A DNA stretch of 6,919 bases, taken from a virus. Lineage: Duplodnaviria; Heunggongvirae; Uroviricota; Caudoviricetes. Positions 1 to 6,919 of this stretch are shown here, piece after piece. How positions within the stretch are numbered: the stretch's first letter is position 1; each line of letters begins with the position of its first letter. The notes under the pieces were generated by a model that ran no database searches, had not been told where the DNA came from, and saw nothing but the letters and a program-made list of their open reading frames with translations. Made by a program: the position numbers and the translations under genes. The DNA is taken from positions 1 to 6,919 of IMG/VR virus record IMGVR_UViG_2737471841_000008; one strand, 5' to 3'.

Positions 1-585
1 TTACTCCCTGACAGGGTTCGTAGGCCACTCAATATCAGGTGCAGTTGATGTATCAACACGGTTCAGCAACACCCGATATTTTTTCCAGGCTTCCAGCAAT
101 GAGGTTTCTTCCTCCGTTGCGATTTCCAGATCTACAGCATCCTGAAGCGGCGCTATATGCTCACTGGCTACCTGCATCAGGCTGTTTTTTGTTTCTTCCG
201 CCTCCCGGATCCGGAACAGTTTTTCTGCTTCCGTATCCTTCACCCAGGCTGTGCCGTTCCACTTCTGAAACTCCCCTTCCGGGGATAACCAGGTGACATT
301 TTCCGGTAATGAGCCGAGTTCAGAAATAAATAACGCGTCGCCGGAAGCCACGTCATAAACCGTTTTACCCCGATGATCTTCAACGAGATGCCACGATGAC
401 TCATCACTGTTGAAAACAGCCACGAAACCAGCCGGAATATCTGGCGGTGCAATATCGGTACTGTTTGCTGGCAGACCTGTATGAGGCGGAATATATGCAT
501 CACCTTCACCAATAAATTCATTAGTTCCGGACAGCAGATTATAAATTTTTATGGTCCGTGGTTGTTCACTCATTCTGAATGCCAT
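1..585 (-). CDS. tfa: Tail fibre assembly protein (lambda Tfa-like, 194 aa)
   Basis: Complete ORF, ATG at 585-583, TAA at 3-1. Translation [18 protein letters not shown]...[11 protein letters not shown] matches from recall the phage lambda Tfa protein of the same length, almost residue for residue. Its ATG shares one base with the stop of the upstream stf ORF (TAATG at 583-587). Confidence 0.9.
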
Positions 586-1799
586 TATGCAAGCCTCACA
601 ATGTAGTTAAATGCGATGTTTTTGACGGTGTTTTCCGCGTTACCAGCAGCGTTAACGGTGATGGTGTGTCCATGTGAGCCAATCGCAACAGAGTGCGTAT
701 GAGCACCAATACCGACAGTATGTGCGTGAGCACCTGCAGATGCAGCTGTGCCGCTGACACTATGAGTGTGCGCTCCTGCAGCACTTGTATTCACACTGGC
801 CGCAGACACTACCTTATGTACTGACCCATTTTGTGACCACTGGCTGACTGCTGATGCGCCTGTGACACTATGAGTATGGTTTCCGGCACTTGCGGCTGTA
901 CCGCTCACACTGTGCGTATGCGCCCCGATGTTATTCGTGGATTTAGTGCCGTAATCAAACGACGATGTGGTTTTCGTCCCCAAATCCGTACTGGATGCAC
1001 TGGCGCTGTGGGTGTGCGATTTAATGCCGTCCTGTTCCTGAGACAATACGGCCCGACCACTGGCAGGTTTGCCCTTAATCGTCCAGCCACGCATATCAGG
1101 GATCACGCCTGACGGATAAGCGGTTGCAAGTTTCGGGTAAGCGGATTTGTCAAAAGTCTGCCCCTGCATCAGGGCATAACCAGACGGAACGGTATCTGAT
1201 GGCCACGGGATTGGTGCGCCAGGCGGATAAAACTGCTCTGATGGCGTATAGAGTGAATAAACTGTACCGTCCGTTAACCCTTCCGGCTTATTAGCAGAAT
1301 ATGCTGGTGACGTATGAATAGTCACGCTGGCATTACTGGTATAATCCCATTGAATATTTACACCAGTCGCATAATTTCCGATTGCAACGTAAATATCGTA
1401 AGTATCACCAGATGTATTGACCCAGGCAAAATTTGTAAACCCTGTCGATGTGCGCTGCCATAAAGCACCAGTAATCCCCTTCGGATTACCATTACCTGCA
1501 CGCAAAACAAGTTCAGATATACCTGCCTGTTGAGGTGACCCCACGTTAAATCCCGCGCCACCAATCAACGTAATTGAAACAACAGAACTCGCCTGTGGCA
1601 TGGTTACCGTTGCTAATTTGAACCAACCAGCACCACCGCTGAATGACATTGTTGTTGAGTTAAGCGTACCAATATCTTTCGGCGTCAGTGTTATATCCGC
1701 TGAAAGCGCCTTACCATTCACCTTACGGGCAGAAGGTAACCCTGCGTCTGTCAGCACAGTAAAACCCGGTGTGCATCGTTTTTGATTATTCCCGCACAC
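585..1799 (-). CDS. stf: Side tail fibre protein, C-terminal receptor-binding portion (5'-truncated remnant; the track start is a GTG directly after an in-frame TGA)
   Basis: 404-aa ORF ending ...[15 protein letters not shown] with repeated His-rich [15 protein letters not shown] units, as in lambda Stf / T4 gp37-type fibre tips. The segment [19 protein letters not shown] is a typical internal tail-fibre repeat. Full-length Stf proteins are much longer; here the reading frame is closed by an in-frame TGA at 1800-1802 (minus strand), so the N-terminal tail-attachment part is absent. Confidence 0.72.
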
Positions 1800-2048
1800 T
1801 CACGCAGAAGGAATTCCCCGTCGGGCTACGGTCATGGTTAATGCGGGAATACGGCGACGATACAGCGCAGCTAAAAGGGTAATGGACAGAAAGAGCGGTT
1901 TATTTCATTCCACAGGATTCTGAGTGCCCCCCTCCTCCAATAGGCTGAGCATCCACCTATATAGTTTTAATTTTCATCAATCCATTTAACTATCGTTTAA
2001 TTGTTGTCACATAGGATTCTGCCGTTTTTAACAATGCAGGATAATAAG

Positions 2049-2342
2049 ATGAAAAAAATGTTGTTTTCTGCCGCTCTGGCAATGCTTATTACAGGATGTG
2101 CTCAACAGACGTTTACTGTTGGAAACAAACCGACAGCAGTAACACCAAAGGAAACCATCACCCATCACTTCTTCGTTTCGGGAATTGGACAGGAGAAAAC
2201 TGTTGATGCAGCCAAAATTTGTGGCGGCGCAGAAAATGTTGTTAAAACAGAAACCCAGCAAACATTCGTAAATGGATTGCTCGGTTTTATTACTTTAGGC
2301 ATTTATACTCCGCTGGAAGCGCGTGTGTATTGCTCACAATAA
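2049..2342 (+). CDS. borD: Bor lipoprotein (lambda Bor-like serum-resistance / lysogenic-conversion lipoprotein, 97 aa)
   Basis: ATG at 2049 preceded by AGGA (2038-2041); stop TAA at 2340-2342. Translation MKKMLFSAALAMLITGCAQQTFTV...TPLEARVYCSQ has a lipoprotein signal with lipobox LITGC and is near-identical from recall to lambda Bor. Transcribed opposite to the lysis genes, as in lambda and DLP12. The upstream part of the track ORF (from 2001) is rejected. Confidence 0.9.
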   Translation: MKKMLFSAALAMLITGCAQQTFTVGNKPTAVTPKETITHHFFVSGIGQEKTVDAAKICGGAENVVKTETQQTFVNGLLGFITLGIYTPLEARVYCSQ

Positions 2343-2373
2343 TTGCATGAGTTGCCCATCGATATGGGCAGCT

Positions 2374-2835
2374 CTATCTGCACTGCTCATTAATATACTT
2401 CTGGGTTCCTTCCAGTTGTTTTTGCATAGTGATCAGCCTCTCTCTGAGGGTGAAATAATCCCGTTCAGCGGTGTCTGCCAGTCGGGGGGAGGCTGCATTA
2501 TCCACGCCGGAGGCGGTGGTGGCTTCACGCACTGACTGACAGACTGCTTTGATGTGCAACCGACGACGACCAGCGGCAACATCATCACGCAGAGCATCAT
2601 TTTCAGCTTTCGCATCAGCTAACTCCTTCGTGTATTTTGCATCGAGCGCAGCAACATCACGCTGACGCATCTGCATGTCAGTAATTGCCGCGTTCGCCAG
2701 CTTCAGTTCTCTGGCATTTTTGTCGCGCTGGGCTTTGTAGGTAATGGCGTTATCACGGTAATGATTAACAGCCCATGACAGGCCGACGATGATGCAGATA
2801 ACCAGAGCGGAGATAATCGCGGTTACTCTGTTCAT
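2374..2835 (-). CDS. rzpD: Rz i-spanin (inner-membrane spanin subunit, 153 aa)
   Basis: [39 protein letters not shown]...KYINEQCR, essentially lambda Rz from recall, with an N-terminal transmembrane segment. ATG at 2835-2833 overlaps the endolysin stop (ATGA at 2832-2835). The track start at 2847 is an upstream GTG and is rejected. Confidence 0.9.
2433..2615 (-). CDS. rzoD: Rz1 o-spanin (outer-membrane lipoprotein spanin subunit, 60 aa), embedded in the +1 frame of Rz
   Basis: [24 protein letters not shown]...[29 protein letters not shown]: lipobox VVVGC and a proline-rich periplasmic part, matching lambda Rz1 from recall. Lies wholly inside the Rz coding sequence in another frame. Confidence 0.85.
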
Positions 2836-3329
2836 TGCTGACCCCACAAACAGATTTCACGCTCAATCTCACGACGAGTCATGAGACCTTTCCATTGCTT
2901 ACCGCCAGCATATGTCCAGCGACGTAGCTGATCACATGCGCCTTTGATATCGCCCTGGTTTATTTTGCGAAGAAGCGTCGATGTTCTGAAATTGCCAGCA
3001 CCCACGTTGTAAACGAATGAGTAAAAAGCGCCGCGCGTTGTTTCCGGTATATCGACTTTGATGTACGGGTTAATTTGTCTGGCGACAGTGGCAAGGTCTT
3101 TATTCAAGAGTGCTTTGCATTCTGCTTTGGTATACGTTTTACCGAGCATGATGTCTTTTCCTGTATGCCCGTGACATACAGTCCATACACCAACAATATC
3201 TTTATATGGTATGTAGCTGACACCTTCCAGACCATCGTCACCACTCGGACCAGTGATGAGCACAGACGCTATGGCAACAGCCCCACCACCAATAGCAGCT
3301 GCTACAGCCTTGCGTAATGATGGCGACAT
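2832..3329 (-). CDS. rrrD: SAR endolysin (phage 21 R-type lysozyme with N-terminal signal-anchor-release domain, 165 aa)
   Basis: [57 protein letters not shown]...: a Gly/Ala-rich weakly hydrophobic N-terminus followed by a lysozyme-like body, matching phage 21 R / DLP12 RrrD from recall. ATG at 3329-3327 overlaps the holin stop (TAATG). Confidence 0.9.
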
Positions 3330-3544
3330 TATTCACCTCTCGCAGCCTTGCGCTTATCTTCTTTAATCTTGAAATAAAGGTTTGTCAGGTACGTCAGCAG
3401 GCCAAATACCAGGCTACCCAGCACTCCAATTGCCGCCCACTGTGAGGGCGTGACTTTATCTAGCAGCTGTAAAAACCAGTACCCGGCACTACCTGCTGAG
3501 GTGCCATAGGCGACACCCGTTGTTAACTTATCCATGGATTTCAT
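3329..3544 (-). CDS. essD: Pinholin (phage 21 S-type class II holin, 71 aa) with dual-start motif Met1-Lys2-Ser3-Met4
   Basis: [71 protein letters not shown], near-identical from recall to phage 21 S. RBS GAGGTGG at 3549-3555 (minus strand). ATG codons at 3544-3542 and 3535-3533 give the 71/68 dual-start arrangement. Confidence 0.9.
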
Positions 3545-5403: not shown

Positions 5404-5787
5404 TTAATTAGAGTTATTAACAACGATATCCATCTCTAACCGGATATCTAATGCCATTAACATCCCTTCAATTATGCCCTCAGCCTTCTGTAACCTTTTC
5501 CCGATATAACCATCAGAGCAGCAATGCTTACCTGCCAGTGACATGAATGTCATACCGACTACATAATAATCTACTAATAAATCGTGCAAATCGCTGTTGT
5601 TCTTTTTCAGACGGGCCATGCACCCGCAAATGATCATCGCGTCATCGTCACAACATTGCGGGCGAGATTTTACTTTTGAAGGAATTAATCCCTTAAAACC
5701 GGCGGCAATGGACGACCAGGTCACATCTTCATGATTATTAGCCGCCCACGCTCCCCAACGTTCAAGAACCATCTGAATATCACGCAT
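5404..5787 (-). CDS. quuD: Late-gene antiterminator Q (Phage_antitermQ family; DLP12 QuuD-like, 127 aa)
   Basis: [34 protein letters not shown]...[16 protein letters not shown]...[12 protein letters not shown]... with a Cys-rich putative Zn-binding cluster. ATG at 5787-5785 with GGAG 7 nt upstream. The track start at 5802 is a TTG and is rejected. Confidence 0.85.
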
Positions 5788-6117
5788 TAACTTTCTCCAC
5801 AAAATCAGGCCAGCACACCAATCGCCAGTGCGCGATCGATAAAACGAAATATCAGCTCAAGCTGGGAGCCATACTTCTCTTCAAATGCCACGGTAACCAG
5901 GTCCACCTCGCCTGATGTGGCTAAAAGCAGGCACATAACAGCTAAGTATTTTCAACCAGAGAGAATCCTTAGCGTTGTGGTGAATGCGGCTCAGCGCACG
6001 CGGGTTAAGGTTGAGGCTGACAGTCGACCTTCTGTGGATACCCACCCGCCTGGTGTGCAACCTTCGCCAGGCACCGGGAGGCACCCGGCACCACAACTTT
6101 ATGCTGTGTGTAGTCCT

Positions 6118-6164
6118 GGCGGTACCAGCTTGTACCCTTGCTTCCGGCTGGTACCGTCCTTTTT
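6118..6164 (+). terminator. Terminator-like hairpin on the plus strand inside the non-coding region upstream of the integrase-like ORF
   Basis: cggtaccagc (6120-6129) pairs perfectly with gctggtaccg (6147-6156), enclosing a 17-nt loop, and is followed by TCCTTTTT (6157-6164). No T-tract follows it on the minus strand. Confidence 0.35.
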
Positions 6165-6253
6165 ACAAAACAGAGAAGAGCATCACCGGACGACGGGCTC
6201 ATAACCCAATCCATCCGGGCGGCAGTCACCGCAGGTGTTCTTCTCTGTTTTGT
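6165..6253. repeat. Perfect 15-bp inverted repeat (acaaaacagagaaga / tcttctctgttttgt) separated by 59 nt, directly upstream of the integrase-like ORF
   Basis: Arms at 6165-6179 and 6239-6253 are exact reverse complements. An extra cacc/ggtg pairing (6184-6187 / 6234-6237) extends the stem and the intervening sequence contains further ccgg/ccgg pairing. Confidence 0.6.
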
Positions 6254-6301: not shown

Positions 6302-6919
6302 ATGGCTAGCGAACGCAGTACTGATGTGCAGGCATTTATCGGGGAGCTGGACGGCGGCGTATTTGAAACCAAAATCGGCGCAGTTCTCAGTGAAGTCGCT
6401 TCCGGTGTGATGAACACGAAAACCAAAGGTAAGGTCTCGCTCAACCTGGAAATCGAACCGTTTGATGAGAACCGAGTGAAAATCAAACACAAACTCTCAT
6501 ATGTTCGCCCGACTACCGCCTGTAAAGTGTTGCGTGATCAAATAGGCAAGCATCACAAATGGGTGTTTGTACATACCAAGGCGGCTAAGCGAGCAGATGG
6601 AACATCAACGCCTGCGGTCAGGAAGATGCGCATCGACAGCAAGACATCATGGCTATCAGCTTGTCGTCGTGCAGGAATTGAAGATTTCCGTTTCCATGAC
6701 CTCAGACACACCTGGGCAAGCTGGCTGATCCAGTCAGGCGTCCCATTATCTGTGCTTCAGGAAATGGGCGGATGGGAGTCCATAGAAATGGTTCGTAGGT
6801 ATGCTCACCTTGCGCCTAATCATTTGACAGAGCATGCAAGGAAAATAGACGACATTTTTGGTGATAATGTCCCAAATATGTCCCACTGTGGAATTATGGA
6901 GGATATAAAGAAGGCGTAA
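6302..6919 (+). CDS. Integrase-like ORF (205 aa): unrecognised ~85-aa N-terminal part fused in frame to a tyrosine-recombinase C-terminal catalytic tail; probable integrase remnant
   Basis: ATG at 6302 with AGGAG at 6290-6294; stop TAA at 6917-6919. The C-terminal half ...[60 protein letters not shown] carries box II H-x-x-R (HDLRHT), the conserved Trp, and the catalytic Tyr in RYAHL. No box I TGxRxxE motif is present in the N-terminal part. The same frame stays open back to an ATG at 5984, but that stretch translates to Arg/Cys/Trp-rich sequence that does not look protein-like. Confidence 0.6.

Follow-up and report, generated by a model that had tools for sequence, protein, structure and literature searches.

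A probable microhomology deletion joins bor-flanking DNA to the middle of stf in a shrunken DLP12 prophage of Escherichia coli

The 6,919-nucleotide stretch of DNA analysed here (the window) is, by its position and gene order, a heavily shrunken form of DLP12, the cryptic Escherichia coli prophage at the argU site. A single illegitimate deletion of ~23 kb very probably joined ylcI-bor intergenic DNA to stf, the side tail fibre gene, at its codon 588/589, with a crossover at a GGTA microhomology (window 1735-1738). The bor-side breakpoint is 46 nt beyond the stop codon of ylcI, with 310 nt left between it and bor. This deletion would have removed ylcI, cos, nohD, the terminase, portal, head and tail genes, J, lom and, at the N-terminal end, 60% of stf. 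It would have left the lysis cassette, nmpC, Q, tfa, a C-terminal piece of stf, and bor with everything upstream of it that belongs to the gene. We infer that this was one event, within one prophage, in an ancestor of one near-clonal lineage. The mechanism would be RecA-independent short-homology recombination or replication slippage, and slippage and end joining would leave sequences that cannot be told apart. The sequence comparisons given below show where the two breakpoints lie, which microhomology they share, in what genomic context the junction sits and how it is distributed.

Six public E. coli contigs are identical (100%) to the entire window, and ORF listing with Pfam scans gives the gene order tfa, stf', bor, Rz-R-S, nmpC, Q and int' (Table 1). 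The element shares with DLP12 its argU site, the order and orientation of its late module and its defectiveness; ORFs and Pfam scans of the 6,919 bases spanning int to tfa yielded no gene for packaging, head or tail. The quuD-nmpC-essD-rrrD-rzpD-bor order and orientation are kept, with 92-98% nucleotide identity to DLP12-site prophages (over 2566/1732-5822), and the lysis cassette agrees in order with essD-rrrD-rzpD/rzoD of K-12. The first-pass annotation had described tfa as intact, which it is, and in the source genomes ybcY comes directly after it. An LITGC lipobox is visible in the Bor translation, as in a Bor/Iss outer-membrane lipoprotein, and the protein is identical to phage 434 Bor at 96 of 97 residues and to lambda Bor at 89 of 97.

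Table 1. Positions of genes, gene fragments, junctions and other features in the window
Feature	Position	Strand	Evidence or remark
tfa, tail-fibre assembly gene, intact, 194 aa	1-585	-	Pfam Caudo_TAP, 154.6 bits; start codon 583-585
stf', 3' 1.15 kb of side tail fibre gene	585-1738	-	Pfam Collar and Phage_fiber
Listed tail-fibre ORF, 404 aa	585-1799	-	ORF listing; Collar, Phage_fiber
Accidental 5' extension of the stf' frame into bor-flank DNA	1739-1802	-	GTG candidates 1757 and 1799; TGA 1800-1802
Retained part of ylcI-bor intergenic region	1739-2048		100% identity to functional phage 434
Conserved long hairpin	1773-1863	-	Helices 1857-1863/1773-1779 and 1841-1851/1787-1797; inverted repeat
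Short direct repeat, distal copy CACAGGATTCTG	1911-1922	+	
Short direct repeat, proximal copy CACATAGGATTCTG	2008-2021	+	28 nt upstream of bor start codon
bor/iss lipoprotein gene, intact, 97 aa	2049-2342	+	Pfam Lambda_Bor, 106.7 bits (cut-off 25)
Lysis cassette S-R-Rz	2374-3544	-	Pfam
Rz	2374-2835	-	Pfam Phage_lysis
60-aa ORF embedded in Rz, Rz1/rzoD position	2433-2615	-	Pfam Rz1 match in same-position product of the 100%-identical locus L013
R lysozyme	2832-3329	-	Pfam Phage_lysozyme
S holin	3329-3544	-	Pfam Phage_holin_2_1
nmpC-type porin gene, intact, 365 aa	4117-5214	+	Pfam Porin_1, 522 bits
Q antiterminator gene, quuD type	5404-5787	-	Pfam Phage_antitermQ, 181 bits
Second deletion junction, ~0.59 kb missing relative to AMSCJX02-type early region	5894-5899		Short imperfect microhomology TGG(T/A)TA
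205-aa ORF, C-terminus a phage integrase	6302-6919	+	
Third deletion junction, ~3.3 kb missing relative to AMSCJX02-type early region	6514-6519		Short imperfect microhomology GCGGT(T)A

Alignments place the deletion junction at 1735-1738, inside the listed tail-fibre ORF and ~65 nt to the left of 1800-2048, the interval to which it had first been assigned. On the bor side, a 1500-2400 query against 5,426 complete RefSeq E. coli genomes matched only from 1732 on (99.9%); against phages, the same bor side matched from 1735, at 99.8% in lambda-like phages and 99.7% in phage 434. In E. coli the bor flank is matched by thousands of records, the identities overall being 99.8-100%. On the stf side, a 1200-1850 query gave prophage tail-fibre matches extending to window 1742 (99.8%) in 1,251 E. 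coli records, and the stf gene of E. coli 118UI is 98.5% identical over window 23-1741, with homology stopping at 1741/1742. In three-way alignments of the stf parent (TTACGGGCAGAAGGTACCCGACCATT), the window (TTACGGGCAGAAGGTAACCCTGCGTC) and the bor flank (GCGACTATGAGGGTAACCCTGCGTC), base 1734 (A) agrees with stf and base 1739 (A) with 434/DLP12. The crossover falls within the 4-bp microhomology GGTA, which lies inside an 8/10 imperfect match, GAxGGTAxCC, at 1732-1741; random sequence joins would share 4 bp or more with P = 0.016.

The two parental homologies abut directly, and we conclude that no DNA was inserted, because phage 434, in which a ylcI-like gene and cosQ come next, matches 1739-2048 at every base. 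In that phage the homology begins 46 nt past the stop of the ylcI-like (DUF3950) gene, with cosQ ~410 nt further. The first-pass annotation had considered whether 1800-2048 might be colinear with an intact phage in which stf naturally begins: colinearity with intact phage 434 was indeed found, but it leads into the ylcI-like gene and cosQ and not into stf. The junction joins two separate, colinear positions that share a short identity; no IS element, att site or long repeat was found at it, and 1650-2100 contained short repeats only, none of them at the junction. The two parents are two relatives and not one ancestor. No single genome with both exact parental sequences was found, so the microhomology and the deletion size rest on close relatives of the true ancestor.

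The extent of the loss can be gauged from E. coli GPEC1189, where the same chromosomal flanks enclose a prophage that looks complete, in the order argU-intD ... quuD-porin-essD-rrrD-Rz and further ylcI-nohD-terminase-portal-head-tail-J-lom-stf-tfa-ybcY-appY-ompT. The morphogenesis genes are present there between the flanks that are fused in the window, which bears out the initial view that bor-side DNA had been joined straight to the middle of stf with those genes missing. The missing interval on GPEC1189 is 22,879 bp, an approximate figure because this genome has a DUF1398 gene and one for a GIY-YIG nuclease in place of bor and is diverged in mid-stf. GPEC1189 was also considered as the direct ancestor and rejected, its stf being diverged in the middle and bor being absent.

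What remains of stf matches residues 589-971 of the E. coli 118UI protein (971 aa), with 383 codons kept and the N-terminal 588 codons gone; the Collar and Phage_fiber domains are in the retained part and the N-terminal domain is absent, so that it is not a full Stf. The fragment had been thought to start inside the fibre repeats, but the break after residue 588 lies 51 nt (17 codons) past the end of the 132-nt tandem repeat array. The listed ORF is closed upstream by the in-frame TGA as described, with bor starting 249 nt away (given at first as ~250 bp). Codons 1-21 of that ORF (1739-1799), like the TGA, are non-coding DNA of the bor flank into which the stf frame runs on by accident, and 1739-1802 is identical to non-coding DNA of phage 434. 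Public annotations start stf' at GTG 1757 (390 aa) or GTG 1721 (378 aa), and an exact look-up of the 404-aa product gave no match. A 378-, 390- or 404-aa 'tail fiber protein' annotated at this locus is best regarded as a gene fragment that opens with codons from the non-coding bor flank.

The contigs that are 100% identical to the window read sfmD-sfmH-sfmF-fimZ-argU-int'-Q-nmpC-S-R-Rz-bor-stf'-tfa-ybcY-tfaX-appY-ompT-envY-ybcH-nfrA-nfrB, which is the context of the K-12 DLP12 locus; in locus L013, argU (tRNA-Arg(UCU)) lies 16 nt beyond the window end. Carriers were found through exact stf' fragment products in E. coli assemblies, and 18 contigs were retrieved (NCBI, ENA, Logan). The junction 26-mer is present in all 18, which were independently assembled, reach up to 165 kb and have consistent flanks. 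Junction-spanning queries found it in none of the 5,426 complete RefSeq E. coli genomes, carriers being known from draft assemblies, and the 26-mer had no matches among GTDB species representatives; the check for the same junction in related strains, proposed at the outset, is positive for one near-clonal lineage and negative for the complete genomes. Carrier flanks differ from each other by at most 3 SNPs per 4.8-9.4 kb, compared with 34 mismatches per 9.4 kb relative to GPEC1189, and this low divergence points to one near-clonal lineage and one event. Some carriers (L014, L015 and L018) have a different, longer early region and the same bor::stf junction, so the late-region deletion is older than the left-arm changes. 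Because all carriers are near-identical, the intact tfa is uninformative on selection, and we infer that tfa and stf' were kept owing to the recency of the event and not to selection.

A breakpoint within 1800-2048, at or near the TGA, with the short direct repeat as the footprint of the rearrangement, would be an alternative to a crossover at 1735-1738. The listed ORF does stop at 1799/1802 and the repeat exists: its proximal copy is where it was first reported (2008-2021), the distal one needed correction from 1910-1921 to 1911-1922, and the copies share a 9-nt exact core (AGGATTCTG) and 11 of 12 positions ungapped. However, 1739-2048 has no breakpoint inside it and is, repeats included, 100% identical to intact phage 434; over 1735-2400 only 2 of 666 bases differ from that phage, both inside the bor CDS. 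Both copies also occur in E. coli 99-3165, in WL164 and in many IMG/VR viral contigs, and the repeat is not above chance, because a direct repeat of at least 9 nt arises in 7.65% of 2000 dinucleotide-preserving shuffles of 1800-2048. Homology to both parents switches at 1735-1738, and the colinearity with phage 434 refutes this alternative; the repeat belongs to the bor flank and played no part in the deletion.

The only serious rival is recombination of DLP12 with a second lambdoid prophage, at the Qin site or elsewhere, which would have brought stf'-tfa into the DLP12 locus from outside. In 118UI a Qin-site prophage adjoining ydfJ/pinQ provides the closest stf match, WL164 has Qin-like pin-ydfK-ynfT adjoining its DLP12-site tfa, and the GPEC1189 stf is diverged mid-gene. 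Tail-fibre genes, however, are known mosaics swapped among lambdoid prophages (PMC3945230), and because these modules are exchanged the best stf match may lie elsewhere without any rearrangement. We judge an inter-prophage rearrangement highly unlikely because both chromosomal flanks are colinear with K-12; the tfa-ybcY junction of the window lineage is, moreover, 99.9% identical to that of the intact same-site prophage of GPEC1189. An assembly artefact or chimera would account for the junction being found in no complete RefSeq E. coli genome and no GTDB representative, but it is excluded for practical purposes, with a chance close to nil, because three sources yield the identical junction in 18 independent contigs, which reach 165 kb and have consistent flanks. 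A deletion within a single prophage is the reading that we retain.

The bor promoter presumably lies within the intergenic DNA that the deletion left in place (1739-2048). A sigma-70 promoter scan of 1650-2400, for which 1.7 sites would be expected, returned none, so that a bor promoter cannot be assigned, and a full-text literature search for a mapped bor promoter gave nothing relevant. The distal repeat copy is found in bor flanks of the 434/Iss type and is absent in lambda and K-12, because it sits in a segment absent from their bor-upstream allele. The proximal copy, CACATA(G/C)GATTCTGC, is kept in both allele families, lambda and K-12 included. The early suggestion that the repeat could be a regulatory site for bor narrows to this bor-proximal copy, whose conservation is weakly compatible with a role in bor expression.

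We note that the same region holds a conserved 105-nt non-coding block (1762-1872), which is bordered on either side by variable sequence and is shared by lambda, phage 434, the DLP12 of K-12 and at least 117 lambdoid contigs of IMG/VR. The conserved hairpin within it (7 + 10 pairs) directly adjoins the deletion junction, forms on the late-transcript strand and is older than the deletion. Across 38 variants, 99.1% of cells are paired, with two compensatory pairs (CG->UA, CG->GC); these variants were gathered by an exact pattern on one outer-helix arm, where the outer helix cannot vary. Nearly all one-sided changes are wobble-compatible on the minus strand and are C.A mismatches on the other. 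The covariation score was reached in 0 of 500 shuffles and the number of covarying pairs in 24 of 500. When 1755-1880 and 1900-2048 were folded as single sequences, no z-score on either strand was significant (-1.05 to +0.53, with -0.9 for the hairpin itself), and Rfam gave no match in 1700-2100 at E <= 1. Small ORFs in the conserved block were considered and rejected, since the 10-codon ORF seen in some variants lacks an ATG in the window and is read in another frame in lambda.

A tail-fibre chimera of a cryptic prophage, StfE2, is reported to block adsorption of phage T2 (PMC12529663). The C-terminal Stf' fragment and Tfa of the window, if expressed by read-through from the Q-dependent late promoter, might mask a receptor and act against adsorption. 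That either the stf'-tfa pair is such a masking factor or the hairpin is an undescribed RNA element of late transcripts in lambdoid phages is, for the two taken jointly, improbable, and neither reading is needed to explain the deletion.

The left part of the window contains tfa coding DNA that matches Rfam family IS009 (44-242, minus strand; 222.7 bits, gathering score 117) wholly within the CDS, and this family probably reflects conserved tfa coding DNA. At the other end, the early region is of the yfdP (CPS-53-like) type, unlike that of K-12 DLP12, and has two further deletions (Table 1), the third junction fusing the 5' part of yfdP to the 3' part of int to give the 205-aa ORF. Upstream of the yfdP-like fragment, 5944-6167 (plus strand) matches the gammaproteobacterial sRNA STnc100 of Rfam slightly below the gathering score (42.4 bits, gathering score 47, E = 8e-7). 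The left arm of sister contigs L014, L015 and L018 differs, with repressor, cro and DUF968 genes. The motif GGT(T)A, often as GGTTACC, is at or beside the breakpoint in four of the six DLP12-site junctions examined (window 1735-1742, 5892-5898 and 6514-6519, and WL164, L003 at about 4100) and is absent at the K-12 and AMSCJX02 junctions. A rough, post-hoc hand estimate puts the chance of this recurrence at ~0.003-0.01 before correction for the choice of motif, and it is probably a coincidence.

DLP12 is a classic defective prophage found in 74% of 638 E. coli and Shigella genomes (PMC6379469), and the K-12 copy at argU was described by Lindsey et al. 1989, as cited in PMC6379469. The K-12 prophage and the window are alike in their fimZ-argU-int and tfa-ybcY-tfaX-appY-ompT flanks, in the order Q-nmpC-S-R-Rz-bor and in the loss of morphogenesis genes. 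In K-12, however, aaaD' (a terminase large subunit gene) is joined to tfaD' at a TAT microhomology, and ybcV, ybcW, ylcI, cos and nohD are kept, whereas in the window ylcI-bor intergenic DNA is joined to the middle of stf and tfa is complete. The bor-upstream allele is of the 434/Iss type in the window and of the lambda/K-12 type in K-12, and nmpC is intact in the window and split by IS5 in its K-12 homologue. Neither the K-12 allele nor the window allele can have arisen from the other. The right ends of phage 434 and lambda have Rz, bor and the intergenic region in the same order as the window, but phage 434 goes on into its DUF3950 (ylcI-like) gene and cosQ where the window switches to stf.

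Other prophages at the site show comparable scars. AMSCJX02 has a portal'::stf' deletion with an AG microhomology, and WL164 a nohD'::stf' deletion with a TT microhomology, with the Qin-like genes mentioned above beside its tfa; both resemble the window in that a late-region deletion, theirs with a 2-3 bp microhomology, ends in stf/tfa and the lysis-bor and tfa-ybcY parts are kept. E. coli 99-3165 is arranged differently again and has another fibre module. Because the breakpoints differ in every case, the K-12, AMSCJX02, WL164 and window deletions are independent events. The argU-site prophage is found in at least six structural states (GPEC1189 intact, K-12, AMSCJX02, WL164, 99-3165 and the window; loci L001, L003, L025, L147 and L023/L024), and the lysis cassette, the porin and the tfa-ybcY end are kept in all six. 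The deletion is ordinary prophage decay, and the window adds one independent allele to a locus with differing microhomology-mediated losses of virion genes. The lysis-bor-nmpC module and the tfa end are retained each time, in agreement with the established stepwise decay of prophages and with the picture of DLP12 as a widespread grounded prophage.
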